Shown: positions 14,236 through 62,879 of the stretch, one piece after another | Layout: each line of letters starts with the position of its first letter | Numbering within the stretch: position 1 is the first letter of the stretch | Source: Octopus vulgaris | Lineage: Eukaryota | Direction of reading: 5' to 3' | DNA length: 64,000 bases | Assembly: GCA_951406725.2 (NCBI GenBank) | Contig: OX597820.1 | Coordinates: 61,070,001-61,134,000 of the forward strand | The notes under the pieces: generated by a model | What the model saw: the letters and a program-made list of their open reading frames with translations, nothing else | Databases searched by the model: none | Told to the model about the DNA's origin: nothing | Position numbers and translations under genes: made by a program

Positions 14236-14894
14236 AGCTCATTACAACTGTTTCATACTTAACCTTTTAATAGATGCGAACATTACATCGTTATAAAAGA
14301 ACGTGTGAGGGCGCGTGGCTTAGTGGTTAGGGCATTCGGCTCATGATCGTAAGGTTGTGAGTTCGATTCCCGGCGACGCGTTGTGTCCTTGAGCAAGACA
14401 CTTTATTTCACGTTGCTCCAGTCCACTCAGCTGGCAAAAATGAGTTGTACTTGTATTTCAAAGGGTCAGCCTTGTCACTCTCTGTGTCACGCTGATTATC
14501 CCCGAGAACTACGTTAAGGGTACACGTGTCTGTGGAATGCTCAGCCATTTGCACGTTAATTTCACGAGCAAGCTGTTCCGTTGATCGTATCAGCTGGGAC
14601 CCTCGTCGTCGTAACCGGCGGAGTCTTTTAAATAAAAGAACGTAATCATCAGATGAGATGTAATTTTTACAAAGCAAAGAAATATCCCAAGAATACAGCC
14701 AGGATGTGGCTAGAATCTGTCGAGGCCATTTCACAGTTGACCTCGACAGACTCTAGCCACATCCTGGCTGTATTCTTGAGATAATCCTTTGCTTTGTAAA
14801 ATTACTTCTCATCTGATTATTGCGGTCTTTTATAATGATGCAATGTTCTTATTTTTCTATTAAAAGATTACGTAAGAAACAGTCGTAATGAGCT
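14236..14894. mobile_element. Inverted-repeat element with paired hammerhead motifs; left arm interrupted by a SINE
   Basis: Arms 14236-14304 + 14632-14726 versus 14739-14894; CTCAT-CTGAT(G/T)A...GAAAC-AGT(T/C)-GTA-ATGAG on each arm; adjacent (TA)n. Confidence 0.7.
14305..14631 (+). mobile_element. tRNA-derived CORE-type SINE with 12-bp TSD
   Basis: A box TGGCTTAGTGG, B box GTTCGATTCC, CORE-like TGTGTCCTTGAGCAAGACACTT; TSD ATAAAAGAACGT at 14293-304 and 14632-43. Confidence 0.85.
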
Positions 14895-15481
14895 GGCAAT
14901 TATCCATCGTTTGTTGTTATTCATTTGATTATAATACACCAAGGTAACTTTCGACTTGTCGGATACTCTAAAGTATACCAACAACGTACTATTCAAAGTA
15001 ACGCGTAATTTAGACCGGCCCCTTAGGCGCTAAATACTCATAGGATTGGTTTTCTCTGTGTGCACTACCGAAATGTCCTATTTGATATTTCGACTCTCAC
15101 CAACCATAGGCCTGAACCACAAAGATTACTAAACCCTATCTGGTTCATACCTTTTCAAATACCTGAAGACGGAAAGTGTGACTGAAGAGGTCACAGATGT
15201 GTGACGAAAGATTTCCCGACAATGGACATGAGTTAAAATAAGAACAGTAATAAACGAATGAAGAACGAATATGTAGTGCAAGTATTTATTTGGCAAAAAA
15301 AAATAACAAATAACCATCCCGAAATAACAATATATATATATATCAAACCAAATAGTGACATTTTAAAATACGTATATTCCAAATTTGCGTGGTATATCAT
15401 TGAATTGAATTGGACTGGTTTCAGTTCATGAGCTGTGGCCATGCTGGGGAACCACCATTTGGTGTTGTTACATTTACTTCA

Positions 15482-15810
15482 CTAATTCAATTTGGAACTT
15501 GACATTTGGTGCTTGAGAGAGTTTGACACCGTTGCCCTCACTTGCACTTCCTGCCGTGAAGTTGGTTCATCTAGGACTCTTGACAGTAAGAGATCTAGTT
15601 TCATTTTGAAGACACCTACATCTACCCCATGCAGGTCTCTCAGGTCCTTCGGGCGGACACTGAAGAGCTGTGGTCCTTTAAAGCCCAGGCTGTTGCAATA
15701 TCTTGTCCTATATTTTGATGGCAAAGTTGGAATCTTTGGCACTATGCAGTGGCACCCTGTTCTGGCGTTAGTGTAACTCTCAATGTCAAAGTTTGATTCG
15801 ATCTTCCAGA
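15482..15810 (-). mobile_element. Non-LTR retrotransposon 3' ORF fragment (CR1-group-like)
   Basis: NSLGFKGPQLF..PKDLRDL..VFKMKLDLLLSRVLDEP. Confidence 0.65.
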
Positions 15811-15891
15811 TATATATTACGGCATATCTTATTATATGATATGATATAATGATTATATTTGATTATATTATATATGATATAATATATAGTG

Positions 15892-15921
<30 letters not shown>

Positions 15922-15925
<4 letters not shown>

Positions 15926-16082
15926 AAACTTCATAAAAGAAAACACAGAAGACGTAGACAAGTGGTGTAGACAACAAACAGATTCATTAGTTAAACACTC
16001 GGGATGTGAAAAAGTCTTTAACGTTTCGAGCCTACGCTCTTCCACAGAAAGGAACACAAAAAGAAACAAGAAGAGAAAATAA
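15922..16082 (-). repeat. (TA)n-adjacent repeat with hammerhead-like motif (second copy 51290-51447)
   Basis: - strand CTGT(G/A)GA-A-GAGC-(G/A)TAG-GCTC-GAAA-CG-T(T/A)-AAAGAC in both copies. Confidence 0.6.
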
Positions 16083-16346: not shown

Positions 16347-16400
<54 letters not shown>

Positions 16401-16403
<3 letters not shown>

Positions 16404-17279
16404 GGAAAAATACGAGCAAGAGAAATATTCTTAAGATTATAAACCTGGAAAATTACAGGACAAGTTATTAATCTTGGAAAATTCAGGACAACTTATTACA
16501 TTTGGTAAAGTAAGGAACAAGAAAATTTTTACTTAAAATATTGCAGCTAAGGATAAAATTTCAAATGAAATATTTAAATTTAGAAAATATTAGCTTTTAT
16601 TAAAACTTAAAATTTTATTACAAGTTATTACTTTTATTTGTTATTACTTGTTACTTCTAGGAAAAATAAAAAAAGTAACTCAATAAAAATATTTTTTGCA
16701 CTTTAAAAACATTTCATTTTTTAATTATTAATTAATAATTAGAAATTTGAAAATAGGTTATAAAAAAATAATAGTAGTACTTAATTAGTTAGTACAATAA
16801 ATAGAATAATACAAAAATTAGTTATATATTACAGTAAAATCTACCTATAACAACAAATTCACAGTAAAATTTGCTTGAGGTATTGCCTAAATTATTGCCA
16901 AGTCTTCTCAAAGTCTTGATCCAAAGACTATTTTTTACATAATGAATTTGCCTACCATATTTAATATTCTACTTAGCATAAAACTTTAGCTATATTGGTA
17001 CTTCTGGCTTTCAGTTTTTAAGTATTCTAGTGTGTCAATATTCTACAAAATGATGGTACTTTTTTTAATTATAATGTTATTTTGTAAATTAAAATCAAAT
17101 AATTTTTAATATTCAAATTTTATCCTTTGCTGCAATATTTTAAGTAAAAGTTTTCTTGTTCTGTACTTTACCAGATGTAATAAGTTGTCCTGAGCTTTTC
17201 CAAGTGTAATAGCTTGTCCTGTAATTTTCCAGGTTTATAATCTTAAGAATATTATTTCTCTTGCTCGTATTTTTCCATG
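16401..17279. mobile_element. Foldback/MITE-like element with ~180-bp inverted arms
   Basis: 16401-16580 inverted to ~17100-17279; internal subrepeats GGAAAATT(A)CAGGACAA(G/C)TTATTA. Confidence 0.75.
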
Positions 17280-17659
17280 TAATCCTTGTTTTTTCCAGGC
17301 TATGATATTATGCTTATTAATAATGTGTCAATTAATAATTTAAGATTTTACCTTATTGAAAATTGAATAATAAATTTAATAAATTTTTTAATGATATTTT
17401 AAAAACTAGCGTGTCGTAAATTTTCCCTTACCTCAATGATGCCGGTGATATATATCAAAAGTCCCCCTAAAGAACTATGTTCAAAAAAAAGTTTCGAACT
17501 ATATTATCATTTTCAAATTTGAGAAACAAGCACTCATAACTTTCTTTCTTTTAAAACTTCATTGCATGAGATTGATACCATGAAATTCCTCGAATTGAGC
17601 TCTATCATTTAAGCTTCATTAAAATATAGTTTGTTATAAAATTTAAAAAAAGTTAATTA

Positions 17660-18830: not shown

Positions 18831-20718
18831 CATACACATTTCGTTTTTATATTTGGTTCGCAAGATTCTTTATGTGAATTCGTGTGTTGAAGCATATTTT
18901 ATTGTCTCTGGGGAGAGTCATTTTGTTTTAATACCTTATTAATCAACGCACTCAACGGTTCGATTTCCACTCTTTTACTTTTTTTTTCTAAAATTTCCGT
19001 TGCTTCTTGCCTCTTCACTAGTCGTTGACTCTGTTATCGGATCTGCGTTCTTTTTGTTTGTTTGTTTGTTTGTTTGTGTTCATGTGTGTTCGTTAGTGTG
19101 TATGTGTATACACATATGTATGTATGTACTATGTATGTATGTATCTATCATTCGTCACTCTACTCCAATCCTAAGTGTTTATTAAGCACACACACACACA
19201 CACATACACACTATATTTATTCATAATCTGTGCTATATTGGTGATCTCGTTCTTAATATCCAGTCGCCTTCATATCATTGTTTAAATTAAGTTCTGCTAC
19301 TCACAATTTTGTTTAAATTTTCCGGAAGTAACACTGTAGTTTTTAACTTGAGCAGCTTGAAAAGCAAAAGCAAGCGATTCTTGATGAGAGTTTAAAACAA
19401 GCCGAAACTACTCCGTTCAATCCTCATTTCAAATTTCCGAGAATTTTAAGCCGTTTCTTTGGTTTCTAGATTTTATGGCAAGTCGAGAAATGATTTTCAC
19501 CTTGATTTTTACCTTGAGATTCTCTCTTTCATCCTTTCTCTTTCATTCTCTTCTTTAATTAGAATCAGTGAGTTTTCAGAGGAGTCTGATTTCTTACGTC
19601 ATACAAAAGTGATCTGTCGCCTTTAAAAACCTTCAACTGCGTCTAAAATGAGAATCCCCACCAGAAGTTTTTCTCTATGGGGTTCCTTCTGTCACCTAAA
19701 TCTCCGACAAACATGTTTTCAAATTTTGTGTCCCCTAAGGTTTGTTTAAGATTTCTTCCTTTTTTTTGTATATTCATGAACACTTCGCTGTTATATCTAG
19801 CAATTCCCATAATACTATAAATAATATATTTCCTTTCTCTCTTCCTTCTGTACATAGTTGACATTCATACGTAACCTAGACATCTCTCACCAAACTCGAA
19901 TTCAGTAACGGATTTAGACTTAGTGAAGCCTCTACGCTATATATCTTTAGACATCTTTTTTTATAAAATTACACCAGAATATCTCACAAAAATTGAAAGC
20001 ATATAACCTTTTAATTGTTTTAATGCCCCCACATATTGTGGGTCATAAACTTTAGTTTGTGTAGCGTATACCTAAATCCGAGTCTTCCTGCGCTAGCAGC
20101 TTAAACAGAGACCTTGATAACATTCTTCACTGGAATCAACTTAATCTCCTTTAACAGCACGAAGATATAATCACTAACATATCCAAGAAACAAAATGGTA
20201 TTATATATGAATATATTGAACAAATCCCTTAAAATCGCTTCAAACTGCATTCCCCCCACTCACAATCTCTAATGATCTTTTCTGGTGTTCTCCCATACAT
20301 AACATTGGCAAAACTGTAATTCAAACACTAATATTTTTTATAGAACCTGAAAATATTTCAGCCTCGATTATCTGTTGCGTCACAAAATTCAATAAAATAT
20401 AATTTTTGAGATTTTGGTGTACTATTTCAAAATTTTGGAATGTGATTGTAGACACGAGGAAACGTCGTTGTACACATTCAAAAGATGGTCTTCTCCGAAG
20501 TCATAAACATCATACATGAAAAAGCATATAAATTAAACTTCGAAATATTGTAAGGTATATATATATATATATATATATGAGAAGTATTAGCATCCAGAAG
20601 ACCCAAGGTGGCAGGAGCGTAGTTAAACTCTCGGTTCGATAATAATATGAGTGAGGAGTCTAATGCGAGTCTTTTATATTGAACTCTACTATTTCCCTCT
20701 ATTTAATTCTCTCACATC

Positions 20719-20766
20719 GTCTCTGATGAAGGGATATCCCTAATATCCCAGAAACAGCTGTAAGTC
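20719..20766 (+). ncRNA. Minimal type I hammerhead ribozyme motif (Penelope-like pLTR type)
   Basis: GTCT-CTGATGA-A-GGGATAT/ATATCCC-A-GAAA-CAGCTG-TA-AGTC: intact core, 7-bp stem II, palindromic stem III; lies in a ~260-bp element flanked by (TA)n on both sides. Confidence 0.72.
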
Positions 20767-20832
20767 TAACTTTCTCTTTATAAATGTCCTGAAAATTCCA
20801 CATAGCCTTGGCTTTGTTGTCTTACTTTATTT

Positions 20833-20878
<46 letters not shown>

Positions 20879-21220: not shown

Positions 21221-24200
21221 ATATGTGTATGTGTGCGTGTGTGTGTAGTCGAATTTAAAGTTAAGGAATTAAGGTTTAGAACGGCATTAAACACAATAGC
21301 CAAACCTTGTTTCAGGGTAAGTCCCAGGTAGTGTGTCTGTGGAGCACCTTCACCACTTATGGCTACCAGACGTCATCAGAGATAGTGTGCATTCATCGTT
21401 GGATTTACATCCAGAACTCCAGAGTGCACGTAGGAAATATTTTAAAGATTATGATTTCACAGAGTTACATTTCGATTTCGCATCAAGGTAAATGGTGGTA
21501 TTGAGAGATTCTAGCAGTTCGGATATACCCTAAGCGAAATCGAAATGTAAATCTGTAAACTCATAAGCATATTATGTCACCTGAGGAGGCTCTTTTGCAC
21601 TGTGTGTTGCATCTGGTGTTATTACATCGTTGCACGCCCACTAGGGAGCAGTGCAACTTGAACCCGAAACGATTGTTTTTTGTTACACTCTGTCTTCTTT
21701 AATATATATATATATACACACACATAAGAGGGATGACCACTAAGTGGACACCCATATGCTAGAAGTCGAGCCCCCTATGGTCTTACCACTAAGAAAAGAA
21801 TGTTCTCAAGAAAATTTAGCAAACCCCAGAACGTAAGATACAAAATAAACAGATTAATCACAAGCCAATGTCGTTGTTACCACTTACGTAATCACTTAGG
21901 TAGAATGTCCGCAACTCGTCAGTGTGATCGTCATAGCAAAATATAATTTGAAGAACTATACACGGGACGTCCGCATGAGATTGAACATGTATATAGTTCT
22001 ACCAATTACATTTGGGGTTATATTTCAAAAGTCTTCTTTTTGGCGCGCCAAACTACCGGAAATAATTCTGCAGAAAATAATTCTCTGCAGTGAATTTTGC
22101 CGGTTAGAGAACATGGTTATTTAAATTTAAACTTAAAATAATAAGGGTGAAAAATTGAATATTAATTTGATTGATATCAATTTAAAACCAGTGGTCTAGC
22201 ATATAGACCACTTTTTCTGAGCCCTGCATTTGTGGAGATGTACACTTTTGTCGGGTATTTCAGGCAATATCTTCGTATTTTCAAGTACATTTCTAATTAT
22301 CTTAGCATCAGGTCCTTTTTCAATATGTTACGTATTTTCTTCGTTGTAAGTACCTGAGATATTGTAAGTACTAGAAATGTCTTCTCGGTAAGTTAATCTA
22401 CATTTAATCTAACATTTAAATTTATATTTATATATATAACAATTTAATAAATAAAACAAATGCATACATACATACACATACCTACATCTATATGTATATA
22501 CACAACGAGAAACGAAAGCATAAAAACAAAACATGGAAACGGACTTTTTTAACAACGAAAAAACAGAGTACAAGACATACAACACAAAATTCTCCTTCTT
22601 CAGCTGCCCCTGTTTCGACTTATTGCGTGTTTCGAAGGTAAGGGCAGGACACAACTTCGTGGAAACAATCCTTCCCGCAAAGCAAATTTTTTTGCGGAGG
22701 GGTAAAAAAGTGACAAGAACAGGACAGTAAAACCAATACAAATAAAGATAAAAACAGTAGAAGACAGGACAAAGAGAAACAAACGATAAGGGCCTTTTTA
22801 AGCCTAGACGGTAGAAAAATATATATATATATATATACAGCGGGGTGTATTATTGTTGGAAAATACTTGTTTCACAATAGTACATCTCATAATTTGTAGT
22901 TGAATCGAATTCACTCTACAGTTGATATTATTTTGGATAAATCCACACGCGTATTTGAGACAAACTTGATCTCGGTGGAGATTGAATTCAATAACGTAGA
23001 CAGCCGAAATTAAATACGTTTCCTTCTGTTGAAAAAGTTCCTGGTTTTGCGTAAAAGAAAATACAGTTAATTATGATTTTATTCAACATATTCCCTTCTC
23101 AGACCCACGCTTTTATTGCAACAGTTCTTCAGTTTTTCTGAGCCCTATAAAAGAATTCGAAAGTTTGGGCGTCTAACCAAGTCTTTTGCGATACTCTAAT
23201 AGTTAGGGTCTTTTCAGCGCCCCCACGTATATCGATGACCCAGTTTCTGCGAAATGAACCACAATAACATTATAATAAAAGCAATAAAAACAACAATTTT
23301 TTTCGGAAAAATTAACATTTCTTTATAAAGTTTAAAGCAGACAAAAATATAATAATCTGTGTATATGCCCATACTGAACAAACGCGTTTTTTATTTATGC
23401 ATGTATGCGTGAACATTTTTATTACTATGTATATGTGTGTGCTTGTGTAGAGAAAGAAATTTCTCTTTAAATGTAAAGATTTCTAGGAAAAGTGTAAAAC
23501 TTTAAAAGCAACCCATTCTGTCAAGATTTTTAGAAATGACTTTAATTCTCAGAAATGCGAAGTTCGAGTAGTTTGCATACAACGTATAGAGGAAGATTAC
23601 TGTCTACTAACAAAGATATATTTACACACACACATGCTCATGTACAAAATTACACGCATGCATACACACACACACACACACACATCGTTATACAGAACCT
23701 AGAAAATATGAAATTGCATATTTTTCTATAAATATATCAATAAATAATTTTAAAAATAAATATGAACATTTATTTTCGTTCGCACATACAAGAATATAAT
23801 CATATAACATGGAAATGTATGACCAAATTGTTCGCTAATAAATTAATTACAAAAGTTACAAAATTATTTAAGCTTATAATCTTGGACATAGTAAAAGGAA
23901 TTTTCACCCGAAGACTCCAAGAAAATGCCAAGCCAAATATCAATTTGGTAGGCGCTTTATGTGTTATATTAGAAACACGTCATTATTACTTGATTTGAGG
24001 ACAGGAATTTTGATAAAGTTTGTTTGGGTTAAAATATTTTTACCAACATTGAGGAAGAATACTTATATTGGTTAAATAATGTTAATTTATTTTTGTTGTT
24101 TTTTCTTTAGTGTAAGAATACTGTTTACTTTGCGTAGGTATTTGGACGATGTTTTTCTTATTAAAGAGTCAGTATCATTGTACATTTTTGTCGGGTATTT

Positions 24201-30889: not shown

Positions 30890-30999
30890 AAATACGAGAT
30901 TAACACTCCAAAAGATTTATGTATGAATGTATGTATATATCCATAAGTCAAAGAATATGCACTCATATATTTATTAATAGAGTGGCTGTATTAATCTAA

Positions 31000-31268
31000 G
31001 TGTACAATATTATATATCTATTACAGTCGATCTTACAATTCGGTTTCACGCTAGGGGTTCAACGGAATATTAGGTAACCGCCTAATTATGTAACCCTGCA
31101 CTAGTTAGAAATGGCAGTTATGGAATGAAATATGGCAATTATTCCATAACTGCCATCTCTGAAGAGCGCAGGTTTACATAGTTGGGTTGTAACCTAATAC
31201 TCTGTTGAACCTCTAGCGCAAAACCGATTTGTAAGATCGGCTGCAATGGATATATAAAACTGTACACT
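31000..31268. mobile_element. Inverted-repeat element with paired hammerhead motifs
   Basis: ~125-bp arms; right arm ATCT-CTGAAGA-GCGC..GCGC-AAAAC..GTA-AGAT (31155-31237); the left arm retains GAAAC. Confidence 0.68.
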
Positions 31269-31275
31269 CCGATTA

Positions 31276-31353
<78 letters not shown>

Positions 31354-31481
31354 TCAACTGATGCTTATTTTATCGACTCTGATAGAATGAAAGTTGAAGT
31401 CAACCTCGGGTGAATTTGAACTCAAAACCTAAACTCGGACTAAATGCCCTTAGGCATTTCTCCAGGCATTATATATATATA

Positions 31482-32341
31482 TGCAGACGACATCAAGCTG
31501 TACCTTGAAATCAAGAGGACAGATCCTGATGTCTACAACTCTTTCCTGCAATCGGACCTAGACACAATGCAGCAATGGATCACAGACTGGCAACTGAAAC
31601 TGGCTGTGGACAAGTGTACCACCATGCATTTTGGGAGAAAAAACCCTGCGTCCACATACTCCCTCCACAACACTGATATCAAGAAATCCTCTTGCGAGCG
31701 TGACCTAGGCATCACTGTCAGCAGTGATTTGCGTTGGACAAAGCATATCTCTAAAATTGTCAAGAAGGCCGAGGGTGTGTTGGCATCATTCAGCAAGACT
31801 TTTGTTAGCCGCTCTCCAGCCATCTATTTAAAACTGGATACAGCTATGGTACGACCACACTTGGAATTCGCATCATCAGTTTGGAACCCCTATCTTGCTC
31901 AGAACATTGACCTCGTGGAATCTGTCCAGAGACGTGCAACCAAACGCATACCCTCCATCAGACACCTACCATATTCTGAGCACCTTGTTTCCCTGGGCAT
32001 GGATTCACTGAAGCTCCGGCGTCTGGCGACGGACTTGGTAAACACCCACAAAGTTATCAACCACCTCACCAACAACAACACTGAACACCTTTTTGATCTC
32101 CATGTGTCTAACACACGTGGACATGCCTACAAAGTCAGAAAACAACACAGCTCCCATGACTTTCGGAAACATTTTTTCACGCTCAGAGTTGCTGAAGCAT
32201 GGAATAAACTGCCTGCGTCAGTTGTTGACTGCCATGACACTGCATCCTTTAAGGCCCTCATGCTTTCCGAAATCCGCCGAAACTACACCTGATTATATAT
32301 ACACTTTAGATGAGTTGTAGTGCACCTGAGCACTGTACACA

Positions 32342-32368: not shown

Positions 32369-32404
<36 letters not shown>

Positions 32405-32408
<4 letters not shown>

Positions 32409-32605
32409 TTTTTATTAAAGCTGCAAAATTATCACAAGAATGTTACTCAGAGTTTCACGTTCTCATTCGTTGGACAGTTGTAAATACTGAATTAAAATCG
32501 TGATTTTAATTTTTAATTCAGTATCTACTACAACTCTCCGACGAACGGAACGTGAAACTCTGAGTAACAATCCTGTGATAATTTTGCAGCTTTAATAAAA
32601 AATAT
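32405..32605. mobile_element. Near-perfect palindrome with hammerhead-like motifs (U4C core)
   Basis: ~95-bp arms beside (TA)n; CCGACGA-ACG/CGT-GAAA-CTCTGAG-TA-ACA at 32538-69. Confidence 0.6.
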
Positions 32606-33106
32606 ATTACTCTACCTTTGGTATTCGAGTACTATTTTCTCCAGCTTGCTTTGCACTTATGTGCTCAGCTTTGCGTGTGAGAGTGTGTAATACTTGCATG
32701 TATGTGTACATACATACACACACAAACACAAGATAACACACACACACACACATAATGTGTTTCTTTCAGTGTCCATCTACCAAAGTCAACTCACAAAGCT
32801 TTTGTCACACTGGGACACTGGTAAAAGACATTTACCCATAGTGCCACACACCTGATACTGAACCTGAAACCATGTGGTTGCGAAGAAAACTTCTTTCAAC
32901 AGAGCCACAGCCACGCCCACAAGCGTATTACTGAAAATAAACAAAGCACTACACACCTACAGCAAAATAATAAAGTACATTCTAGAATTGATCTTGTGAT
33001 AGGTGCAACGAAGTTGCAGTTTTTCCACGTATTTTTATGAGAAGTTATCAAAAACTCTCATATGCACAATCACCCGAGATGTAAAAAAAAATGTATTTAT
33101 AGATAC

Positions 33107-33422: not shown

Positions 33423-33425
<3 letters not shown>

Positions 33426-33840
33426 TTATGAGAGATAATGGTGTCAGTGAGACCCAAAGGTGTCAGGTAATGCTGAATATGGATAGTCCATAGCTAAGTT
33501 CCAGATTCGATGATTATGCGAATAAGGGGTCCAACGTTGGTCATATATCAATGTGTGTATATAAAAATTTTTGTCCGTAATGAGATAAAAAAAACAAGGC
33601 TGTGTAGATTATAGAACATTTATAAATAGGTCTTACAGCTGTTTCTAGGATATTTATTATATCCCTTCATTGGAGATCTCTGTTTCGTATCTTATCTAAA
33701 TTAACTATTGCTTAACCATCTTCTCCCACCGTCTCTGATGAAAGGATATAATAAATATCCTAGAGACAGCTGTAATACCTATTTATAAATGTTCTAAAAT
33801 CTACACAGCCTTTGTTTTTTTTATCTCATTACGGAAAAAT

Positions 33841-33845
<5 letters not shown>
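33423..33845. mobile_element. (TA)n-flanked element with inverted pair of hammerhead-bearing repeats, related to 20577-20835
   Basis: Arms ~33566-33676 and ~33731-33843; CTGATGA-AAGGATAT/ATATCCTA-GA(A/G)ACAGCTGTA; 5' part GAGACCCAAAGGTGTCAGG matches GAAGACCCAAGGTGGCAGG near 20597. Confidence 0.72.
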
Positions 33846-33887
<42 letters not shown>

Positions 33888-45147: not shown

Positions 45148-45227
45148 CTTTGTGACATACTTGCATTTATTTGAAATAAACTCTGTAGAATGGAAACAAA
45201 AGCAGCAGATAATGGTGTTTCTCGAAC
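45148..45227 (-). CDS. INF2: INF2-like formin, FH3/dimerisation exon (absent from the ORF track)
   Basis: tctttttAG|..|GTatga; VRETPLSAAFVSILQSLFQINASMSQS, cf. INF2 [21 protein letters not shown]; phase 0 to 2 joins both neighbours. Confidence 0.85.
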
Positions 45228-45554
45228 CTAAAAAGAATTAAAATATATGTAAGTGTTAGCTGTACTTGTCAAAATGTAAACCAGATATCATATAATTTTC
45301 AAATGTAGATATTGAAGAACATTTCTTGAAATTTATTTATTCTAGCTATAACAGTGACTTACTTGAAAAACAATCAGTAAATCTGTCTTGGCAATTTTTC
45401 TGACAATAGTTACAGTATCTTCAAGCAAACGATATATTTAGCATCATGAAAAATATTAAATGCAATAAAGAAATCATTCCTTATTGTTAAAAAATAAACA
45501 TTTAACTGTTTTGGTATCAGCAAGCCCCATACTGAATAAGGATATGTTTACAAA

Positions 45555-45845
45555 GTCAGAAAACAGCACAGCTTCCATGACTTTCAGAAACATTTTTTCA
45601 CGCTAAGAGTTTCTGAAGTATGGAAAAAACTGCCGGCATCAGTTGTTAGTTGTCGGAGCACTGCATCCTTCAAAAATTCCATGCTTTCTGAGATTCGCCA
45701 ACACTACACCTGATTTTCTCCCCTCCATACACATGCAAGCATGTATCTGACTCATACACTGTTCACTTTCCAGACATTTGTACATTACTGCATATACTTT
45801 ATACGCACTTTCTGACAAGTTGTGGTGCACCTGAGCACTGTATAC
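45555..45845 (+). mobile_element. CR1-group LINE 3' fragment (further 3' ends at 46615-46800 + and ~43035-43085 -)
   Basis: Matches 32130-32340 (AAAGTCAGAAAACA..CTACACCTGA..GTGCACCTGAGCACTGTA). Confidence 0.85.
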
Positions 45846-46159
45846 AGTGATCGAGTTAAGCTAAAAACCTTCCATCAAAATTTCATGTTAATTTACGTAT
45901 GAAACACCAGCTAAATAATGACAATATTAGTTTACTAAATTCTTTATTAATTTCTAAAATAATTGAAAGAAGCAGTGCATTTCAACAGAAATTTGTTAAC
46001 GAAAGATTGAGACAACTTTTTTTCATTTTTCTTTTAGTTGCAGTATAAACATTTTGAAAAACAAAAATATTCCGAGGTTTTTTCGATTGCCAAAGTGATC
46101 TTCTAAGAGCCATATACACAGTAAAATCGTAAGAATATACTTAATACAAATATATTATT

Positions 46160-46496
46160 CACAAAAACCGTTAGATTCACTTCAACATTTAAATTTAATT
46201 TGTCAAAATATTTTCCTCGTTTTGAAACTGTGACCTGCTCACTGACAAAATTCCGTGCTGCATCTAAGAAAGCAACAGTTAGTTAATGATATATATGTAT
46301 TTATGTATGTACGCATGTTTGTACGCAGATACATACGTATGTACGTACATACACACACACACACACATCATGAACAAACTATTACTTTCTCAGATGCAGC
46401 ACGGAATTTTGCCAGTGAACAGATCGCAGTTTCAAAACGAGGAAAATATTTTGACAAATTAAATTTAAATGTTGAAGTGAATCTAACGGTTTTTGT
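46160..46496. mobile_element. Inverted-repeat element with G3:C8-variant hammerhead-like motifs
   Basis: ~120-bp arms around a microsatellite spacer; TTTG(T/C)CA-GTGA(A/G)CA-...-GAAA-ATAT-TT-TGACAAA on each arm. Confidence 0.6.
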
Positions 46497-46769
46497 AGTT
46501 TTAAATGGCTTATAAACACCTTCCACGCTGCAATTGTTTTTTGTTTCAGCACACGATCTCAGATCAGGTCACTTGTTATGCAAGTACATCTCTGTAAAAT
46601 ATATTACTCGTTTTATAACACTACACCTGATTTTCTCCCCTCCATACACACACAAGCATGTATCTGACTCATACGTTGTTCGCTTTCCAGACATTTTTAC
46701 ATTACTGCATGTACTTTATATGCACTTTCTGACAAGTTGTGGTGCACCTGAGCACTGTATACAATAATT

Positions 46770-46803
<34 letters not shown>

Positions 46804-47279
46804 GTAATATGGATTACAGACGTGAGATCAGACTATGGTAGAGGAATATTTTAATTCGCATCTTCTAAAGGGTCGAACAGTTTCTTTTCAGGTCTTGGTT
46901 ACTGTTCCAAAACATTTATTAAAGAGTTTCACAAACTGTTATAGGTTTAAATATTATTTGCAGCTAAACCATCTAAACTTTCGGTGTAGGGGACGTAAGA
47001 ACTATGATAAGGCTTTGATTATCTCCCTTTAATTTTCATTTTTGCTCTATTGATGGACAAAATGTTTGTTTACAGCAACAGGTTAGATCAGGTGTGAGGG
47101 GCATGCACCGTTGCAGCACGTTGCTGCATTTACCAATGCATCCGACCAATGATAACCTATAATCCAAACTGCGACAGATTATTGCTACTAACATTTTAAA
47201 AACAACCCACTTGGCTATTTGCATGCTAATTACCTAAACTCTCTAAATCTAACAAGAGAACTCGCAATATAGTAATTAC

Positions 47280-47461
47280 CCGGTTAAAAATAGCTGTGAA
47301 CAGTTCTTGTGGGTTATTGACGTTGACATTTCCATCTTTCGTTTCCTCCAGGGCTTCTTGGTCAGCAGACATCTCATCCTTGAAAACATCCCATTGTATT
47401 TGAAAGTCAGGGTTGTCGATATTCTCACACACCACGGCTATCGTTTCTTCTATATTCAATG
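47280..47461 (-). CDS. INF2: INF2-like formin, FH3 exon
   Basis: atttaAG|..|GTaatt; ALNIEETIAVVCENIDNPDFQIQWDVFKDEMSADQEALEETKDGNVNVNNPQELFTAIFNR; phase 1 to 0. Confidence 0.9.
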
Positions 47462-48769
47462 CTTAAATAGATATTCAGTAAACTGATTTATAACATCTTG
47501 AAAGAAGAATCTTAAGAAGCAAAATAAAACAATGAAAACCCTGCAGAAACCAATATTCTCGATTATAATATTATGAAACAAGGAGTCTAGATCATTGATT
47601 AAATTCTTTGCAGAATGTGGTTATATGCCACTAAGTTCTATGTTCAATGAAGCTTGACTTTCATTACTCCAAGAATTACTATATGTTATAATTCTTTTCA
47701 TTTGCCTTGAGTTCTAGGAGTAATATAAGACCAATTATTCAATTTCCATGGTGTATAACTGACTGAGATCATAACATTCTCCCTGGATGGGATGCTGATC
47801 CATTGGGGAGATAAACTGATAAGATGAACTCTGGTACATGACTGGTACTTTATTTTATTGATGCTAGTGAGATGAAAGGCAAAGATGACCCCAGCAGGAT
47901 TTGAAACCAAAATATAAAAACTTGCAAGAAATACTGCTAAGAATTTCGCCTGATGTGCTAATGATCCTGCCAGCTCACCACCTTATATATATATTGCTAT
48001 AAATACCAGTAACTACTGACTTTGATTCTCTCGTCTAATATCACTCTCTTACAAAAGTTAGCAAGAAACATTTATTAAGAAGTTCTTGATTTCCTAACTC
48101 TTTTCCTTGTATATTTGAATTTCAAAAAGGATACAAAAACAGCCACTAGTTCTGTGTAAATTAAACCTGCTCTCATGTATCAGTAGGAAATAGAAATACC
48201 TCTGGTTTTATGCATTATACAATGATGGCCAAAAAAAAAGAAGGCCCAAAAAGTTAGTTCTGAGAAACTGGTCCTTGAGAATTACTACAAAAACCAAACC
48301 TTGTAAATTTCCAAGAATATATCAATATACAATGATATAGGTCCCTCCCACATTACCAGGAACAAAAACATATACACACACATACACATTAATGTTAGAT
48401 ATCACTTAATAGTCTTTTATGTTTGATCATGGTTAATCTTCTGTGATGTAAATGTGAAAAAGTATCAAAATTATTCTGTATGTAGTTGAATTTCAGTAAC
48501 ATTTGTTCTAATTTCTGGCTAGAATTTAACTTTATTACTTGAAGTAATTTATGATAAATTTGTTGCAAAAGATTGGTAGGCGTGGTGTTTACCACATAGT
48601 CATTAATTTAATGATAAAAAAAGATTCTCTTGATCTTAATAAAAGCCTTTAGTAAGGTTCATGACAATACTGGCCAATGAGAATATTATTTTTGGTGGTA
48701 GATACATAGTTCTCATGGCATTTGTAGTTTAATGATAGCAACCATTAATAAGTTGACATTATTTTCTGT

Positions 48770-49645
48770 TCTCTAAAAGTAGCAAACTGGCAGAATCATT
48801 AGCATGCTGGATGAACTAGCGGTATTTCGTCTGTCTTTAGGTTCTGAGTTCAAATGCCACCGGGGTCAATAAATTAAGTACCAGCTATGCACTGGGGTCG
48901 ATGTAATCGACTCATCCCTTCCACAAAAATTTTGGACCTTGTGCCTAGAGTAGAGAAGATTATTTTCTGTACTCAAGGTGGCCAGTTGGCAGAACTGTTA
49001 GCACGCTGGGCGAAATGTTTAGCGGTATTTTGTCTGTCTTCACGTTCTGAGTTCAAATGCTGCTGGGGTCAACATTGCCTTTCATCCTTTCAGGGTCGAT
49101 AAATTAAGTACCAGTTACACACTGGGGTTGATGTAATCGACTCATCCCCTCCCTAAACATTTCAGGCCTTGTAGAAAGTATTATTCTTCGTACTCTAAAA
49201 GTAGCAAGCTGGCAGAATCATTAGCACACCAAACAAAATGCTTAGTGGTATATTGTCTGTCTTCACATTCTAAGTTCAAATTCTGCCAAGGTCAACTTTG
49301 CTTTTCATCTTTTCAGGGTCAATAAAATAGGTACCAGTTGTGTACTGGGGTTGATGTAATCAACTAACCCTTCCCTTAAATTTCAGGCCTTGTGCCTATA
49401 GTAAAAAAGGATTATTTTCTGTACTCTAAAAGTAGTAAACTAGCAGAATCCCACAGATGAAATGTTTCATTGCATTTCTTCCAACTCATTATGTTCTGAG
49501 CTCAAATTCCACCAAGATCAGCTTTACCTTATATCCTTTTGTGGGTGTCGATAAAATAAATACCAGCTGAGAACTGGGGTATCAATGTAATTGACTAGCT
49601 CCCTTCCCCAAACTTTCAAGCCTTCTACCTATAATAGAAAAAATC
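48770..49645 (+). mobile_element. Array of four diverged SINE family B copies
   Basis: Units start near 48780, 48978, 49200 and 49432. Confidence 0.82.
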
Positions 49646-50887
49646 ATTACCAATACTCTCAATCCAAAATTGTGAATTTATCCTGCGAATAACTTCAGAA
49701 ATCGGTATTAGCAATGTTGGAAAATGTTTGATTTTTAGTGATCTTAGAGACAACAGATTTACCAAAAATGAGAAAGCACCAGACATCAGTGTTTAGTTTT
49801 GCCTTATATTTATAAGTTAAAATCCTGCAAATCGGATTATAATTTTTCTTCTTTGGGAAACGAAAATGGGTGAAAAATATATCCCAAGCTGTATTAGAAT
49901 AATTTCAACTAACTGATCACTCTGCTCTTAATGTGGCCTTGTGTATCATCATCATCATCATGTCCACTTTTCCATACTTTTTAAATAATGGGAGAAGCCA
50001 AATCCCTTCACCATAGTGGCACATCTTCTTATTACCCTCTGCTATAAACTTTTTGTCATGTACCAGAGAAAATCAATTTTAAGAAATTGAAAAATTTCCC
50101 AGCAGCATCTTCAGCTTAAAGAACTTACAGTTAAATGTGAGTCACAATACTTAATGTGAAGGGCTAAAATTAATTTTTAACCATCTAAAATTATACCCAT
50201 AGTAAGAAGAAAAATCATTAGTGTCAATGAAAATTACTCTGAAAAACAGCAAAGGAGAGAACTTTGTAGCTTGTCCAATATTAATCAAATAAAAAGTCAT
50301 TTTTCAAAAATAATTTTATCAAATAGCTTATAATAAATTTTATAAAATTTCTATAATATGCAGGGTTTCTTCATGTTATACAGATATTCTTACTGTTTCA
50401 AAAACTCAGTTTTTTTTTTTGGTATTGTTGTTTAGCTGCTGGGTTAGACGTGATCAAACACACTTATGTATTCAAGCCAACCATGACCATCCTGTTTTTT
50501 TCCTACGTAGAATGCATCCAGAGCCACATTATACAATAAATCATTCAAGTGGATATGATTTGATGGTTTTGACTGTTATTTCTAGGAAGTAAAGTGACCA
50601 TGTAATGGATCCATGCTAGCTCAAATAGAAATTGTTTATAATACAGGTGAGCTTCCAGTAACTTTGTTGAAGAATGTTGGAAAATATGAATAAAACCAAA
50701 AGCATATTCAGTTTAAGGAAATGCTTTTTATAACAAAAGAATTGTTGTAGAGGAGGAGAATAATGAAAAACAAATAGAAATAACCTAAAATGAAAAAAAA
50801 TAAATAAATATACAGTTTGTATTTTCATTAAAACTGAAAAGCAAGCAAAACACACACACACACACACACACACAATAAATTCCTTAC

Positions 50888-51047
50888 CAATAAATTCATT
50901 CCGAATTCTCATTCTATCCAGGATGTTCTCGTTGGCAAAAATTATGGAATTAACAAGTGCCATAATGCTAACTTGATATGTTGCCAAATCTGCATGACGT
51001 AGTTCATTTAATATCAGACTAAATCGATATTGTAATTTCTGCCAGGT
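50888..51047 (-). CDS. INF2: INF2-like formin, FH3/DID exon
   Basis: ttttacAG|..|GTaagg; TWQKLQYRFSLILNELRHADLATYQVSIMALVNSIIFANENILDRMRIRNEFI; phase 0 to 1. Confidence 0.92.
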
Positions 51048-51462
51048 CTGTAAAAGTCAAGAAGTGTCAAATTAGAAAAAAGAAAAAAGTGTTTTCCGTC
51101 TGGAATTTTCAAAGCTAATTATTATACAACCATAATCATTATTACAAAATATTAGTTTGATTGAGAGGGACATTGCATAATAGCAATATATGCTGACACA
51201 ACTTTCTCATTCTTTATTTTATTTTCATTATATCTATATCATTAGAGAGAGAGAGAAAGAGGAGAGAAGGTATATATATATATATATATAGGGAGAGTTT
51301 ACGAAAAAAACAAAAGACGAAGACAGGTGGTGTACAAAACAAACAGATGTATTAATATAATGCTCAGGAATAGAAAAAGTCTTTTACGTTTCGAGCCTAT
51401 GCTCTTCTACAGAAAAAGACGCAGAAAAAAACAAGGAGAGAAAAAATGTATATATATATATA

Positions 51463-52797
51463 CAAGGTGGGGCATAACGACCTCCCGCGTTTGGAAGAGA
51501 CATCGTGTGTGGAATTAAGTAGAAGTAGAGAAGCAGGATAGGTTTCATTTGGAAGGCTAAGATCTACCATTTTTATATTCATCATCCATTGGTTAAAAAA
51601 TTTATTTCTTTTTAGAGCCTATCATGAATTGGACCAGTGAACATTGTGGCTTTGTTGTTCAAGTGTATTACAAAAATGGCCAATCTGTAATAGCGATGCA
51701 GTGAGTGTCCTGTAGACACTTTGCACTCGGTTGAAATGCATCTGTACCAGAGCAGTAAGCGATTTTGCTTAGGATTTCTAACCTTCGTGCAACTGGATCC
51801 ACATTGAAAAGAAAATTTCGTGGCAGACCTAGGATTGTTAGAACTCCAGAAAATGTGGCATCAGTGACAGCATCTGTTCAGGAATCCCTAAAGCATTCTG
51901 CTCATAAACATAGCATAGCATTAGAAATATCTAACTGAAGTTTGAGGAGGATTCTGCATGCTGCTTTGAAACTGCATCCGTATAAAATGATGTTAGTTCA
52001 AGAATTAATGGTGACAGATCATAACAATCGTAAAGCCCTATGTGCAGATACTCTTGCAGAAGTTCCCACGGCAGCTGTTCTGAGTACCGATGAGGTTCAC
52101 TTCCAAATCAATGGAAACATAAACAAGCAGAATTTTCGGTACTGAACTGAACACAATCCTCATGAACTCCACAAAAGACTGCTTCATTTTCCTCGTGTAA
52201 CTGTTTGGTGTGAAGTCACTGATTTTAGAGTTATCAGCCCATACTTTTTTAAAGAAGGTGTTGAAACAGTAACGGTTACCTCTGGCCGGTACAGTGAAAT
52301 GTTGGAGAACTTTTTGCATCCTAAACTGGACAGGTTGGATACCGAACATCTATGGTTTCAACAGGATGTATCCATGGCTCACACAGTACAACGTTCACTT
52401 GGAGTGTTGAGAGAAATGTTTCCTGGCCATTTGATTTCTTTGAGGGGAGACGTGAGGTGGCCGGCAAGGTCACCGGATTTTAGCACTTGTAAAGTTTTTC
52501 TTGGGGGATACCTAAAGGAAAAAGTTTTCCGATATTATCCTCGAACTCTTGAGGATTTGAAAGAAAGGATTCATGAGGAAATCAAAGCAATACCACCTGG
52601 GATGAAACAGTGGGTCATGGAGAACTTTTGGGAACGACTGCATCAATATATTGTCAACAACGGTCGCCATTTGCTTAATATAGTTTTTAAAACCCAGTAA
52701 GATAAAAGTTTCAGAAACATAATAAATTTTTTCCTGGATACTTGTGTTCTCTCTTTATCTTCATTCACAATGTGGGAGATCTTTATGACCCGCCCTG
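51463..52797 (+). mobile_element. DD41D-type (Visitor/rosa) Tc1/mariner transposon, inactivated
   Basis: Imperfect TIRs CAAGGTGGGGCATAA / CAGGGCGGGTCATAA with TA TSDs; STDEVHF..NKQNFRY, WFQQD, WPARSPD, GYLKEKV; 41 residues between the second D and the expected third D position (mutated to K). Confidence 0.85.
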
Positions 52798-55370: not shown

Positions 55371-57107
55371 AGAGAAACAACTATGAAACAATAACATTTT
55401 CAGTCATACAAAAAGAAAATCGACAAGTCAAATACGAAGAAATAGGGAAGATAAATGGAAGGTAAAAAAAAAACGAAAATATCTTGTCTTCGATTGAAAT
55501 TTTTTTCTTCTTAATGTCTGGCTTGAGTGTAGAACGTAAACATGGTGACTTATACATCTTACTTCTAGAAAAATTCGATTGGAGAATAGTGAAAGTCAAT
55601 ATGAAAATTATTAAATTAATAATTCTGAAAGAAATAAAGGAAAAGGAGAAAAAATATGGAAGGAAAAGAAAACTTAAAACACACACACACGCACACACAT
55701 ATCTTCATATATGTAAATATATCTTCAGATATGTAAAGAAATATATAAAATACACACACATACTTATATATGAATATGTATATTCCTTGTTTTACATTCA
55801 TTTTATTTTTTTTTTTATGCTAGCGTAAGTTGAACTGTTAATCATTTGAGGTGTTTTTTACAGTCGGATGCACTTCCTGTCACCAATCTTTCCTGTATTA
55901 CACGTGCGCACATACACACACAGACCTTATGTAATTTTGATTAAACTAACCAAGTTCAGTAAATACAAATATACTGTACATGCAGAATGTATATTTTTTA
56001 ATTCGAAAGGTTATTAGAAGTTCGGTATGTAAAAATCTTGCTTTGACCAGAAATATAGCTTTTAACTCGGCTTATACATTCTAATATATTTCAGTCGTGT
56101 GAGAAAACGGTGAGATGAAACTCAAAGTAAAACGTTTTGAATAAAAGGATATACACTCTGCATATACAATGTATTGTGTCCTTTATTGAACTGGGTGGTT
56201 TCATTAAGAACTACATCATGTGTGCGCACACTTGGTGTTTAACCGTTTCCTTTTCTTTTTTATTTTCAGCCGTCTCTTCTCAGTTTCCTTTATTTTTCTT
56301 TGAATTATTAATTTATTGATTTACATGATGTCTAACTTTTCTTTTCTTCACTCGAATTTTTCTGATATTTTCTTTCTTATTTTCTCCCGCCAACCCCATT
56401 TTTCTCTCTCCATATTTCCTTATTTTATAACAAATTGTCGATTTTTTCTTTTTAATTTGGCCGAAAATGTAACTGTTTCAATTTTATTTAGCGACTCCAA
56501 AAAGATGAAAGGTAAATTTCACCTAAGTGAAATGTGAACTTTGAGCACAATAAGTTGAGATGATTACCACAAAGCAATCTATCCAGCGCTCTAACGAGTA
56601 TGCTAATTGGCCATCTCGACACACACCGACACACTAAAGTGAGGTTCATCTTCAACCTGTGAAAGTGAATGTTGGTAGTTGTTCCTTCTCAAGTACAATT
56701 GAAGCCAACTAATGAATAATAACTCGAATAAAGTAAAACTTCAACTTCAAATGACTAAAATAACTCGGATGAAATGGATCGTACTTTACTTTAACTTTCT
56801 ACCATATAAACTGTACTTTATTCGAAAGGACTTTAACCCCACATCTCAGGGCCAAATATTCTACTTGTTCTATACTCAAGCAGGCCAGATCTGGCCTCTT
56901 GCACCTGCGTTACAATATCATTCTAAAAAAATAAACAATTACATTTTTGAAATCTCGAAGCTACACGATAATTCATAACTGATTCAGAACAATGTGAATA
57001 AAGAAGTATAACATTTGACAGAATAATCTGAATGCTAAATGGTTAAACCATTCATGGAATACGAAATATTTCTGAAGTAATTTAAAGCTTCTATGCTGTG
57101 AACTGCG

Positions 57108-60290: not shown

Positions 60291-61269
60291 TCAGTATCTG
60301 TGTAGTTAATGCATGCGTATGCGTGTGGGGGGTGGTGCTTAGTTTGTGTGTGAATGCAAGTTTGTTTGTTAAGTAATGCTAGGATTTAGTACTCTGATTT
60401 TGAACTGTTGTCTATTTTGCCTCTAGTGCAGACATATTGATGATGGTGGGATTGTTGTTAGTCCGTCCTTGTTTACTATTAAGCTCATTCTCAGCCTCTA
60501 ATATTATATTACTTTTTTCTATTTGTCACAAGACGGGGTTATATTGGTGCGTTGGTAAAAAGTTTTATTTCAGTGCTGTTTACCAAGCTATCATTCCTCA
60601 ATTGCATATTGGTACAATAACGATATTGTTTTGTTTTCCTTGTAACTGCACCAGTTTCTCTCTATTTCTCTGCTCTGGTACGAGCCGTTCCTCTATAGCA
60701 ATTGTGTTAATGTTTTTTTCTTCGACTTTCAAGCATCTCATGTGATGTATTACAATTCTAGTTTTACAACAGATACGTTTCCACCAACAACATCGCCACT
60801 GCAACAGCCGTCCACCACCAATCACGGTGCACCTACCACACAGCCATAGCTAGTGTACCCACCGCATTGATGTTGCCAGGGTGTCCGTGATACTTTTAGG
60901 CAATACATTAAAAGCAGTGGCAATAGTGGGAGTGATATTAGAAGAATTTGTGGAGGAGGGAGGGTATATTGACTGTTGAGGGTAGGACGCGGGCGAGAGA
61001 GCAGTGGTGCTGGGAAGGTGCATGTTTGGACGTTTTTCTCGTTTCATGGCGTAATAGTGATGCCGGCAACGGTGGTCGCAATGGTGATTGTGGTAATCGA
61101 AAGAGAAAAACGAATATAGTGTAACTTGAATAGAATTTTCTTGAAATTTGTTATAACAATGCCTATATAATGAGCGACTAATTATGACAATTACCGTTTG
61201 ATAAATAATTTGTTATTGTAATAAATGGCTTTCTCTGTGTGTATGTTTATACATACATACAGGCATACA

Positions 61270-62508
61270 TACACACACGAGGTGTATGTAACCTTTGGAT
61301 GGGAGACGACGTCACCCTTCCTGCGCATGCGTAAAAAATGTTGCGCCGGTTGGCCGCGTCAATTCTTGATTGTTACGCCTAGAGTTCACGTATAGCGCGA
61401 GCTCTTCAGATTTTCGTTTTCACGCAAGATGACAGAACCCATCGAGCAGAGACCATAAACCAATGTCTCATCACCAATGATGATGGTCTTAATGAAATCT
61501 GGGACAGTAACTGACACAGTCCAGCATGCTCTGAACGATTTCTTTGCGCAATTGCTACTGCTGCTGTTTGTTTGTTGAGCGAAGCGGTCTTCGTCCCAAT
61601 GGGAGAAGTCCGAAACGTGGTCCTTTGCTATTCGTAAGACCCGCAGAAAAGAAAGCAGGTCAACCCCCGACACCGAGAGCATCGACGGATGGATGAATGC
61701 GCATCCAGGCTCAGCGGTTGTGTAGGAAGTCGGGGACAAGAAACAGGAAGAAAGAGTGAGAGAAAGTTGGAGCGAAAGAGTACAACAGGGGTCGCCACCA
61801 CCCCCTGCTGGAACCTCGTGGAGCTTTAGGTGCTTTCGCTCAATAAACACACAACGTCCGGTCTGGGAATCGAAACCGCGATCCTCCGACCGCGACGCTG
61901 CCCTAACCACTGGGCCATTGCGCCTCCACTTGCTGCTGATGTTCCACCAGTACCTTGGGAACGAATTTCGCCGACACTCTCCACCTGTACAAACCCTCCA
62001 TTAAAACGGAATGCACTTATCCTGTGCTTATTCCCACTTTGTGAACAACTTCCTGGATTGTGCACGACGGACTTTCATGACAATTTGCCGAACCTTCTCA
62101 ATCGTCTCCTCGTTTCGGCTCGCAGATGACCTGCCTGAGAGTGCCTCACTCTCTACTGAGGTGCAACCATATTTGAAGCGGTTGTACCACTCCTTGGTGT
62201 GAGTTTTGCCCATAGCACGATCGCCAAAGGCCTGCTGAATCTTCAACTTGAGTACCACCAATCTTTTGGCAAAACCTGGTGCAATATCTCTGCTCTTTGC
62301 ATTCGGTGAAAACGAAAATCCGACAAGAGGGCATTGCACGTCTATACTCTAAGCACAACAGCCGGGTACTCACGCGGCCCACTGGCGAGAACATTTTTAC
62401 GCATGTGCAGAAAGGGTGGCGTCACCTCACACCCAAAGGATTTTGCCCACGTGGCATTAGTTTTGGCGGGAAAAAATAAAGTCGGATATTGCTTGAACGC
62501 GCTTTGTA
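61270..62508 (-). mobile_element. Internally deleted mariner with long imperfect inverted ends and a nested SINE
   Basis: EQRYCTRFCQKIG, EWYNRFKYG..SGR, IIIGDETLVYG; 61308-61360 is inverted relative to 62371-62423. Confidence 0.75.
61530..61928 (-). mobile_element. SINE family C variant (different 3' half) inside mariner
   Basis: Same head as 54367 and 63203; diverges after CTTCCTGTTTCTTG. Confidence 0.8.
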
Positions 62509-62543
62509 TACACATGCGCACGAGCGCAAAAACGAACATCGAT

Positions 62544-62581
<38 letters not shown>

Positions 62582-62654
62582 TAATATTTCGCTTAAGCAT
62601 AGCGAAACTACTAACCTGCTGTTAGAACTCAATGTACATAAGCTTCAGAAAGAA

Positions 62655-62879
62655 TTAAATAAATGACAAGGGAACTAGAAATTATGTAACGAAGTTCTTT
62701 AGCTTACATCTGTTTCTACGATAAGATGCAATGCACTCATACTCTGAGCGCTTGCAGATCACCTTGTAGCTTTATTTTTGAAGCTCCGACGCTCGGATAA
62801 GAGTGCATCTATGGCAGAAACAGCTTTAAGCTAATGAAGCTCGTTACAAAATTTCTCGCTCACTTGTCATTTATTTAAT
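62655..62879. mobile_element. Degenerate inverted-repeat element, hammerhead 3' half retained
   Basis: ~95-bp arms; GAAACAGCTTTAAGCT (right) and GAAACAGATGTAAGCT (left, - strand), consensus GAAACAGCTGTA. Confidence 0.5.

Follow-up and report, generated by a model that had tools for sequence, protein, structure and literature searches.

The 64,000-nucleotide stretch of the Octopus vulgaris genome analysed here (assembly GCA_951406725.2, contig OX597820.1, positions 61,070,001 to 61,134,000 of the forward strand; hereafter the window, in whose own numbering coordinates are given) contains seven palindromic elements, which are named E1 to E7 in window order. Two of them, E5 and E6, sit in introns, between exons of a formin gene on the minus strand. 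An initial annotation, made from the sequence alone, described the seven as inverted repeats carrying back-to-back, outward-facing hammerhead ribozyme motifs, and proposed that they are either truncation and inversion products of many Penelope-like element (PLE) families or a separate class of non-autonomous hairpin elements. Comparison with other copies in the genome points to the following reading, to which we give a probability of about 0.6: the palindromes are decayed head-to-head pairs of hammerhead-bearing ends from seven families, at least four of them PLEs, and each pair likely arose in one insertion, when one RNA was primed from both cut strands of the target.

Each of the seven places does contain an inverted repeat; a search for such repeats returned I1, I2, I3, I6, I7/I18/I21 and I9, and E2 was found by alignment. 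The elements are longer than first described. One arm of each extends into a tail of 60-260 nt that belongs to its repeat family, and the elements are therefore asymmetric and not simple hairpins; all seven combine a short arm with a tailed arm. Tailed arms are given below to the limit of the tail in the family alignments, and signed numbers are family positions counted from the predicted hammerhead cut site. The left arm of E1 (14236..14728, minus strand, -149..+7) is of the short-end type and has a canonical core at 14652. Its stem II is split by a tRNA-headed short interspersed nuclear element (SINE; 14306..14630, plus strand, ends approximate), a later insertion that appears as a gap in the family alignment and has a weak tRNA match at 14311-14380 (E 0.71). 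The tailed right arm of E1 (14726..15166, plus strand, -161..+279) has its core at 14813, with G8 changed, and a predicted cut after 14887. The tailed arm of E2 is the left one (21247..21524, minus strand, +241..+41 and -114..-187), from which the hammerhead is deleted; its short right arm (21523..21705, plus strand) has an intact core at 21581 and damaged stems I and II. E3 has a mutated core in its tailed left arm (30939..31136, minus strand, -102..+94), and the core at 31159 in its short right arm (31141..31277, plus strand, -92..+44) has lost G12. The short left arm of E4 (32403..32504, minus strand, -63..+41) has lost G5; the tailed right arm (32511..32679, plus strand, -56..+113) has an intact U4C family core at 32538 and a damaged stem I. 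The tailed left arm of E5 (33423..33676, minus strand, -42..+216), within a formin intron, has also lost G5, and its short right arm (33677..33850, plus strand, -97..+74) has a core at 33735 with a mutated GAAA. In E6 a trimmed left arm of the short-end type (46160..46290, minus strand, -84..+46) and a tailed right arm (46367..46601, plus strand, -84..+152) both have a G3:C8 core, on the right at 46415, and a damaged stem II. Between them lies an inverted (TACA/CA)n tract (46291..46366) that is part of the family upstream sequence. The tailed left arm of E7 (62592..62775, minus strand, -69..+144) is cut within the core, and the core and stem II of the short right arm (62776..62879, plus strand, to +51) are partly deleted. 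As initially described, several arms adjoin (TA)n, namely the left arms of E1 and E4 and the right arm of E5. The initial annotation saw no open reading frame in any element, and tblastn with endonuclease and reverse transcriptase (RT) probes found no PLE reading frame in the window. The arms are unrelated in primary sequence between most families, as had been claimed, but E5 and E7 have a common stem III and core type.

A dispersed family stands behind every arm. Each right arm served as a query against the 2.8-Gb genome (for E6, the entire palindrome did), and alignments were made of the best 23-30 loci of each family. First-look candidates, which are not copy numbers, amount to at least 267 for E1, 340 for E2, 551 for E3, 1005 for E4, 2812 for E5, 3096 for E6 and 171 for E7. 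The E1, E3, E5 and E6 families lie behind PLE endonuclease or RT coding sequence. Long E1 copies extend upstream into sequence of the PLE RT thumb, the cysteine linker and the GIY-YIG endonuclease. At one E3 locus (L090), whose end is common to another long copy, the coding sequence directly upstream is that of a GIY-YIG endonuclease only. RT motifs and a C-terminal endonuclease are found about 0.8 kb upstream at E6 locus L481, with RT-like Atlas matches of 0.92-0.93. An endonuclease frame precedes one long E5 copy (top Atlas match GIY-YIG, 0.95); among 30 loci fetched with this endonuclease, one of them the query locus, 21 have a co-oriented E5 arm 0.9-1.4 kb downstream and two have an inverted arm upstream. 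Judged by eye from its motifs, the E5 family appears to be the 3' end of a Neptune-like PLE, and a cysteine-rich linker ahead of the endonuclease in E1, E3, E5 and E6 fits the Neptune and Nematis clades as presented in PMC8557442. The E2 and E4 families are probably PLE-linked as well. An endonuclease adjoins the E2 upstream sequence in a single locus set (L438/L499), and coding sequence lies about 2.3 kb upstream of E4 at L486, with about 1.6 kb of contiguity judged by eye; the upstream walk for E4 yielded few long copies. All PLE coding frames are broken, and their motifs were read by eye. The part of the initial annotation that saw truncation and inversion products of many PLE families is supported. 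Three E5-type loci (L228, L248 and L253) have long in-frame asparagine/threonine-rich stretches between RT and endonuclease, which resemble the N-rich inserts of rotifer Penelopes (PMC3846280).

The majority sequence of each of the seven families contains one sense and no antisense type I hammerhead with a self-complementary stem III. The motif withstands a shuffle control, in which 0-1 of 1000 dinucleotide shuffles per family match a relaxed descriptor, itself composed after the families had been inspected. Stem sequences vary among families and their pairing is retained. Within families, two-sided changes number 0-4 per base pair among 35-83 arms, as decay predicts. Mismatches at non-CpG core positions are fewer than at other positions in all seven families (in E5, 16/742 vs 389/3708), a comparison inflated by alignment ends and subfamilies. 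Predicted homodimers lie 3-13 kcal/mol below two monomers, as folding energies taken without a shuffled control. The core is canonical in E1, E2 and E3. Position 4 is a C in 58 of 80 E4 arms and 65 of 83 E5 arms and is divided in E7 (23 C and 24 T of 50 arms), probably through CpG decay. A G3:C8 core, with an additional base ahead of stem II, occurs in 32 of 35 E6 arms. E6 is an abundant PLE family with a natural G3:C8 core, exemplified at 46415 in the window and by L481.

The window copies themselves have decayed hammerhead motifs. The skeleton points outward on the plus strand of every right arm, as initially reported. Its mirroring on left arms holds for five complete but mutated copies and not for six, because the left arm of E7 is cut inside the core; the left motif of E2 is deleted. 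A strict CUGANGA scan matched none of 13 window arms and a one-mismatch scan matched one, the right arm of E1. No arm passed the relaxed descriptor, and none is intact. The core, GAAA and U of the family are retained in five of the 13 arms (the SINE-split left arm of E1, the right arms of E2 and E4, and both arms of E6), all of which fail the stem tests. An Rfam scan of the window found no hammerhead family; its sub-threshold matches to miRNA hairpins were produced by the palindromes and microsatellites and were set aside. Outside the elements the relaxed descriptor gave three matches, vs 0-1 in 20 shuffles, which are regarded as chance-like. The 190-nt tail of E2 (L190; window 21247-21451, minus strand) holds a second canonical core heptamer that forms no type I hammerhead under the descriptor. 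The essential G5 is lost in the minus-strand arms of E3, E4 and E5 (31108, 32473 and 33673), which run in the same direction as the formin transcript. Two of these three positions are CpG sites, so ordinary decay may explain the loss, and of the three elements it is E5 that is shown to be intronic.

The anatomy of the pairs was counted in two samples. The arm-selected sample comprises 199 loci over the seven families, and its 73 pairs include the seven window elements; its E6 loci were drawn with a palindromic query. The tail-selected sample was drawn with the tails of E5, E1, E4 and E2 as queries, to lift the bias toward whole ribozymes. The samples overlap in some loci, and their counts are not additive. 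Excluded were opposite-strand duplicates (L002, L004, L006, L008, L025, L029, L030, L074, L124 and L153), near-duplicates (L119, L296 and L355) and, in the tail-selected sample, copies of the window or query (L273, L333, L363 and L393); L278 was corrected by hand. Partners shorter than about 20 nt escape detection, and the short class takes in a few arms that stop well before the short end.

Two alternative 3' ends, a short and a tailed one, occur in every family: +47 and +307 in E1, +57 and +245 in E2, +45 and +105 in E3, +41 and +114 in E4, +74 and +217 in E5, +90 and +152 in E6, and +53 and +144 in E7. The short ends are located in AT-rich words. A head-to-head partner is found in 73 of the 199 arm-selected loci, and 126 have no detected inverted partner; among these solo copies the short end is the commonest (90/126). 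Sixty of the 73 pairs consist of a short and a tailed arm, ten of two short arms, and three of a short and an intermediate arm. Pairs of two tailed arms are absent (0/73), where about 12 would be expected if the arms were independent. Of the 114 tailed arms in the tail-selected E1, E2, E4 and E5 loci, 59 have a partner, which in no case is tailed (0/59). An inverted, 5'-truncated copy with a one-sided tail is found in all seven families; this is the known PLE layout and not that of a new hairpin element.

In 45 of 57 pairs the two arms resemble one another more than they resemble other copies (divergence 13% vs 16%), and non-majority letters common to both number 206, against about 36 expected. 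Their inner ends correlate within families (rho 0.94, 0.81, 0.72 and 0.49; median offset 15 nt; permutation p 1e-4) over 49 of 59 pairs, the ten omitted being those whose tailed arm ends before +20; over all 59, rho is 0.46. Of 60 pairs, 30 have the longer 5' extension in the tail-less arm, 17 have it in the tailed arm, and 13 have arms of equal reach; several tailed arms end near the short start site while the short arm continues. Junctions are varied: among 67, 22 overlap by 1-19 nt, 30 have a gap of 0-15 nt and 15 a larger one. A whole palindrome with a constant centre does not recur. The 73 junctions include two near-coincidences, with gaps that differ or lie at the reference limit, one being an artefact of the 5' limit of the reference, and the centres vary. 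Each pair comes from one event and one source and was not copied as a unit. Direct repeats of 12 and 11 nt flank the whole pairs L003 and L007, two of 38 complete pairs, and a third has an 8-nt match. Microsatellite sequence lies beyond the short end in 25 and beyond the tailed end in 29 of the 38; most other pairs are in microsatellites, so that a target-site duplication is unreadable there. At L215, L103, L118 and L056 the end of the second arm is internal to the element, within the endonuclease or the 3' untranslated region, and not at the short end; either priming at other internal sites or later damage would account for this.

These features suggest the following course of events. The PLE endonuclease would cut an AT-rich target on each strand, with the cuts about 11-12 nt apart in the two cases where this can be read. 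The tailed arm would come from one target 3' end that primes reverse transcription at the distal start site of the RNA, and the short arm from the other, which primes at the proximal site. The two cDNAs would extend toward the RNA 5' end, be joined via a few bases of microhomology and then be filled in. Two primers, one per start site, would give exactly one tailed and one short arm. The resulting palindrome would be a dead by-product that is itself uncopied. The hammerhead likely acted in the parent RNA, as a dimer via its self-complementary stem III, and may set some 5' ends, by cutting or by stalling RT. In PMC11167929, an anole PLE protein cuts and extends both strands, and RT starts at two adjacent RNA sites that define the tail. 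The formation of tandem and inverted PLE insertions is named as an open question in PMC8557442. The counts turn this question into a testable rule of one tail per pair, one template and two start sites, and with tails as long as 260 nt the two start sites are easily distinguished.

Several points weigh against this model. The samples are the 30 best BLAST matches per query and not random copies. E7 has no co-oriented upstream coding sequence in 64 loci scanned, and the coding links of E2 and E4 come from one locus each. Pfam gives a single sub-threshold GIY-YIG match (E 1.2) on the broken PLE frames and nothing for the RT pieces, and the clade names rest on motifs compared by eye with those in PMC8557442. 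The 55 of 114 sampled tailed arms (about 55%) that have no detected partner are unexplained, as are the ten short+short pairs. Shared variants and correlated inner ends would also be predicted by a cDNA folding back on itself or by later gene conversion, and deletion at the centre of a palindrome could invert which arm appears longer. Since the same stretch of RNA is represented in both arms, the model has to invoke either strand displacement or a second RNA.

The fold-back alternative derives both arms from one cDNA, which, primed at the tail end, would snap back, copy itself outward and anneal through its AT-rich short end to the target, with the junction blurred afterwards by deletions at the centre. 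Self-priming has been proposed for inverted PLE junctions (PMC3846280), some junctions lie on short natural palindromes, and fold-back predicts the one-sided tail, the shared variants and the correlated inner ends, all of which are observed. However, the tailed arm should then reach at least as far 5' as the other arm, and the reverse holds in 30 of the 60 pairs, including cases in which a tail-only arm adjoins a short-end arm extending 80-360 nt upstream from the cut site. Moreover, the short end is the usual end of solo copies and therefore behaves as an independent start site. Deletions at the centre at a later time could obscure arm lengths, and fold-back, though unlikely, for this reason keeps a minority share of the weight.

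The hairpin class offered as an option by the initial annotation, whose members would move as whole palindromes, is not supported by the data and is in our view highly improbable. E4 is its best candidate, with a partner arm at 16 of its 29 arm-selected loci and 15 of its 29 tail-selected loci, and with tailed arms that rarely begin upstream of about -60; its coding link is thin, and E7 has none. Yet the junctions vary from copy to copy and almost never recur, and it is such variation among copies that the initial annotation had named as refuting this class. Single arms make up the majority of copies, some E4 and E7 copies are longer single arms, and E4 and E7 pairs obey the same short+tailed rule as the coding-linked families. 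A short E4 RNA could be moved in trans, but the palindrome would still be rebuilt each time. It is also very unlikely, if marginally less so, that the host keeps the palindromes as regulatory RNA hairpins, with a ribozyme and its antisense lock, as an editing substrate or as a source of small RNAs. The position of E5 and E6 would suit such a role, as would the predicted minus-strand folds of five elements, which are long hairpins with 71-83% of bases paired. E5 and E6 would fold as long hairpins in the formin pre-mRNA; the ribozymes there are mutated. Against a retained function, the mean divergence between arms (13%) is little under that between unrelated copies (16%), the window copies have broken cores or stems, and within families the stems have mostly changed by decay that unpairs them, rarely on both sides; editing could also be incidental, without function. 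Long hairpins placed in host introns are relevant to the reading of dsRNA or editing data, and the frequency of PLE stumps, seven in 64 kb, matters for repeat annotation.

Priming from both cut strands can be carried one step further, to a proposal that we hold only tentatively and consider possible but doubtful. PLE integration would be a two-site twin priming, with one ribonucleoprotein acting on two fixed sites of one RNA, and the shortest palindromes would record the RNA start, often just after the cut site in E5 and E1. If this is true, they are a genomic record of ribozyme cleavage in a living animal, including natural G3:C8 and U4C families. Nine of 28 tail-selected E5 tailed arms begin at +1 to +20, five E5 pairs have both arms starting at +6 to +8, and 5 of 13 E1 partner arms begin at +4 to +15. 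In 13 of 59 pairs the two arms both end close to the cut site (Fisher p 9e-6). Little excess there is seen in E2 and E4; most E4 tailed arms end between -30 and -60, possibly at an RNA start. The pooled excess is weak. Over the four families, tailed arms show a 1.4-fold excess of 5' ends just past the cut site (p 0.10); partner arms show a 1.7-fold excess relative to all bins (p 0.055) and a 4.5-fold excess relative to neighbouring bins (p 0.0015), in bins picked after looking. The excess is mainly in E5 and E1, where short local palindromes occupy the same spot and could by themselves attract junctions. A folded stem I could stall RT without cleavage, and PMC11167929 reports that RNA-seq showed no ends at the position of the ribozyme and that the in vitro reaction did not require cleavage. 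The marking of 5' ends by the ribozyme is thus a hint only. Clusters of 5' ends in the arm-selected samples, at about -150 (E1), -100 (E3), -200 (E2) and -84 (E6), were not accepted as evidence, because they coincide with the query start or the reference limit.

The exons of the formin gene run on the minus strand from at least 51 kb down to 33.1 kb (33106-51056). They include an FH3 exon (50616-51056), the proline-rich FH1 region near 43.7-44.9 kb, FH2 exons (38826-39230 and 33106-33270) and a spliced exon (36845-37025) that one contig joins to 33106-33270. This contig is among those of four runs presumed to be RNA; repeat copies swamped the contigs of these runs, which are uninformative on strand, ends and editing. 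A homeodomain exon (7655-8179, plus strand; Pfam PF00046, E 5.8e-24) encodes a product that we take to resemble Xlox/Pdx. Open frames at 31444-32292 (plus strand) and at 12915-13660 (minus strand) and 52146-52700 (plus strand) presumably represent the C-terminal part of a LINE RT and mariner-type transposase fragments, respectively. An eighth, single arm (20710-20848, plus strand) is related to E5 and more diverged (75%). More long inverted repeats lie at 16397-17283 (I4, I10, I20), 33842-34159 (I8), 40659-41280 (I5, I13, I16) and 55594-56333 (I11).

Inverted insertions of this kind have a known counterpart in LINE-1 twin priming, in which both target strands prime one RNA and an inverted segment results. 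The two LINE-1 segments do not overlap, whereas the segments here usually span the same RNA stretch and so form a palindrome. Among PLEs, insertions of endonuclease-bearing (EN+) elements with an inverted terminal repeat (pLTR) and a one-sided tail are described in PMC3846280 and in Fig. 2 of PMC8557442. The octopus pairs share with them the head-to-head inverted 5'-truncated copy, the tail at one end, the short target duplication, the microsatellite targets and the hammerhead in the terminal repeat. They differ in that both halves are too short to retain coding sequence, in tails of 60-260 nt where those described are 30-40 nt long, and in that the one-tail rule and the arm correlations are counted here over seven families. 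In the literature searched, apart from supplements and subscription papers that may contain them, we found neither a count behind the one-tail rule nor tails as long as 260 nt, and neither twin priming as a reading of PLE inversions nor a natural G3:C8 core.

The ribozymes resemble the minimal type I hammerheads of metazoan PLEs (Cervera and de la Pena 2014, PMC4209133), which have a short stem I, a longer stem II and a palindromic stem III, and occur as many unrelated families per genome, mostly in single truncated copies. Dual minimal hammerheads 100-700 bp apart on opposite strands are described there, and an extra base between positions 9 and 10.1 occurs as in E6. The core variants in the available text of that paper are U3-A8, whereas E6 has G3:C8 and E4 and E5 have C4; U4C is known from a viroid (PMC3088659), and C3G/G8C is a laboratory rescue (PMC11167929; PMC8495972). 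Metazoan non-LTR retrozymes (PMC7229834; bioRxiv 10.64898/2026.07.22.740005) are likewise short, non-coding and PLE-related and have a type I hammerhead. They consist, however, of head-to-tail tandem units that give circular RNAs, whereas the families here are mostly single arms or head-to-head pairs. Direct repeats of an arm were found in only 8 of 200 loci, and a retrozyme identity in the tandem sense was rejected on this count; L447 is one tandem array of an E2 tail fragment in which the ribozyme is absent. As objects, the seven palindromes are ordinary dead PLE ends of published layout, and their value lies in the data they provide on the insertion mechanism. In this respect the closest likeness is to anole Poseidon in vitro (Frangieh et al. 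2024, PMC11167929), with its two tail-defining RT start sites, AT-rich target and cutting and extension of both strands; the available text of that study draws no link to inverted insertions, and the link is one that we infer here.

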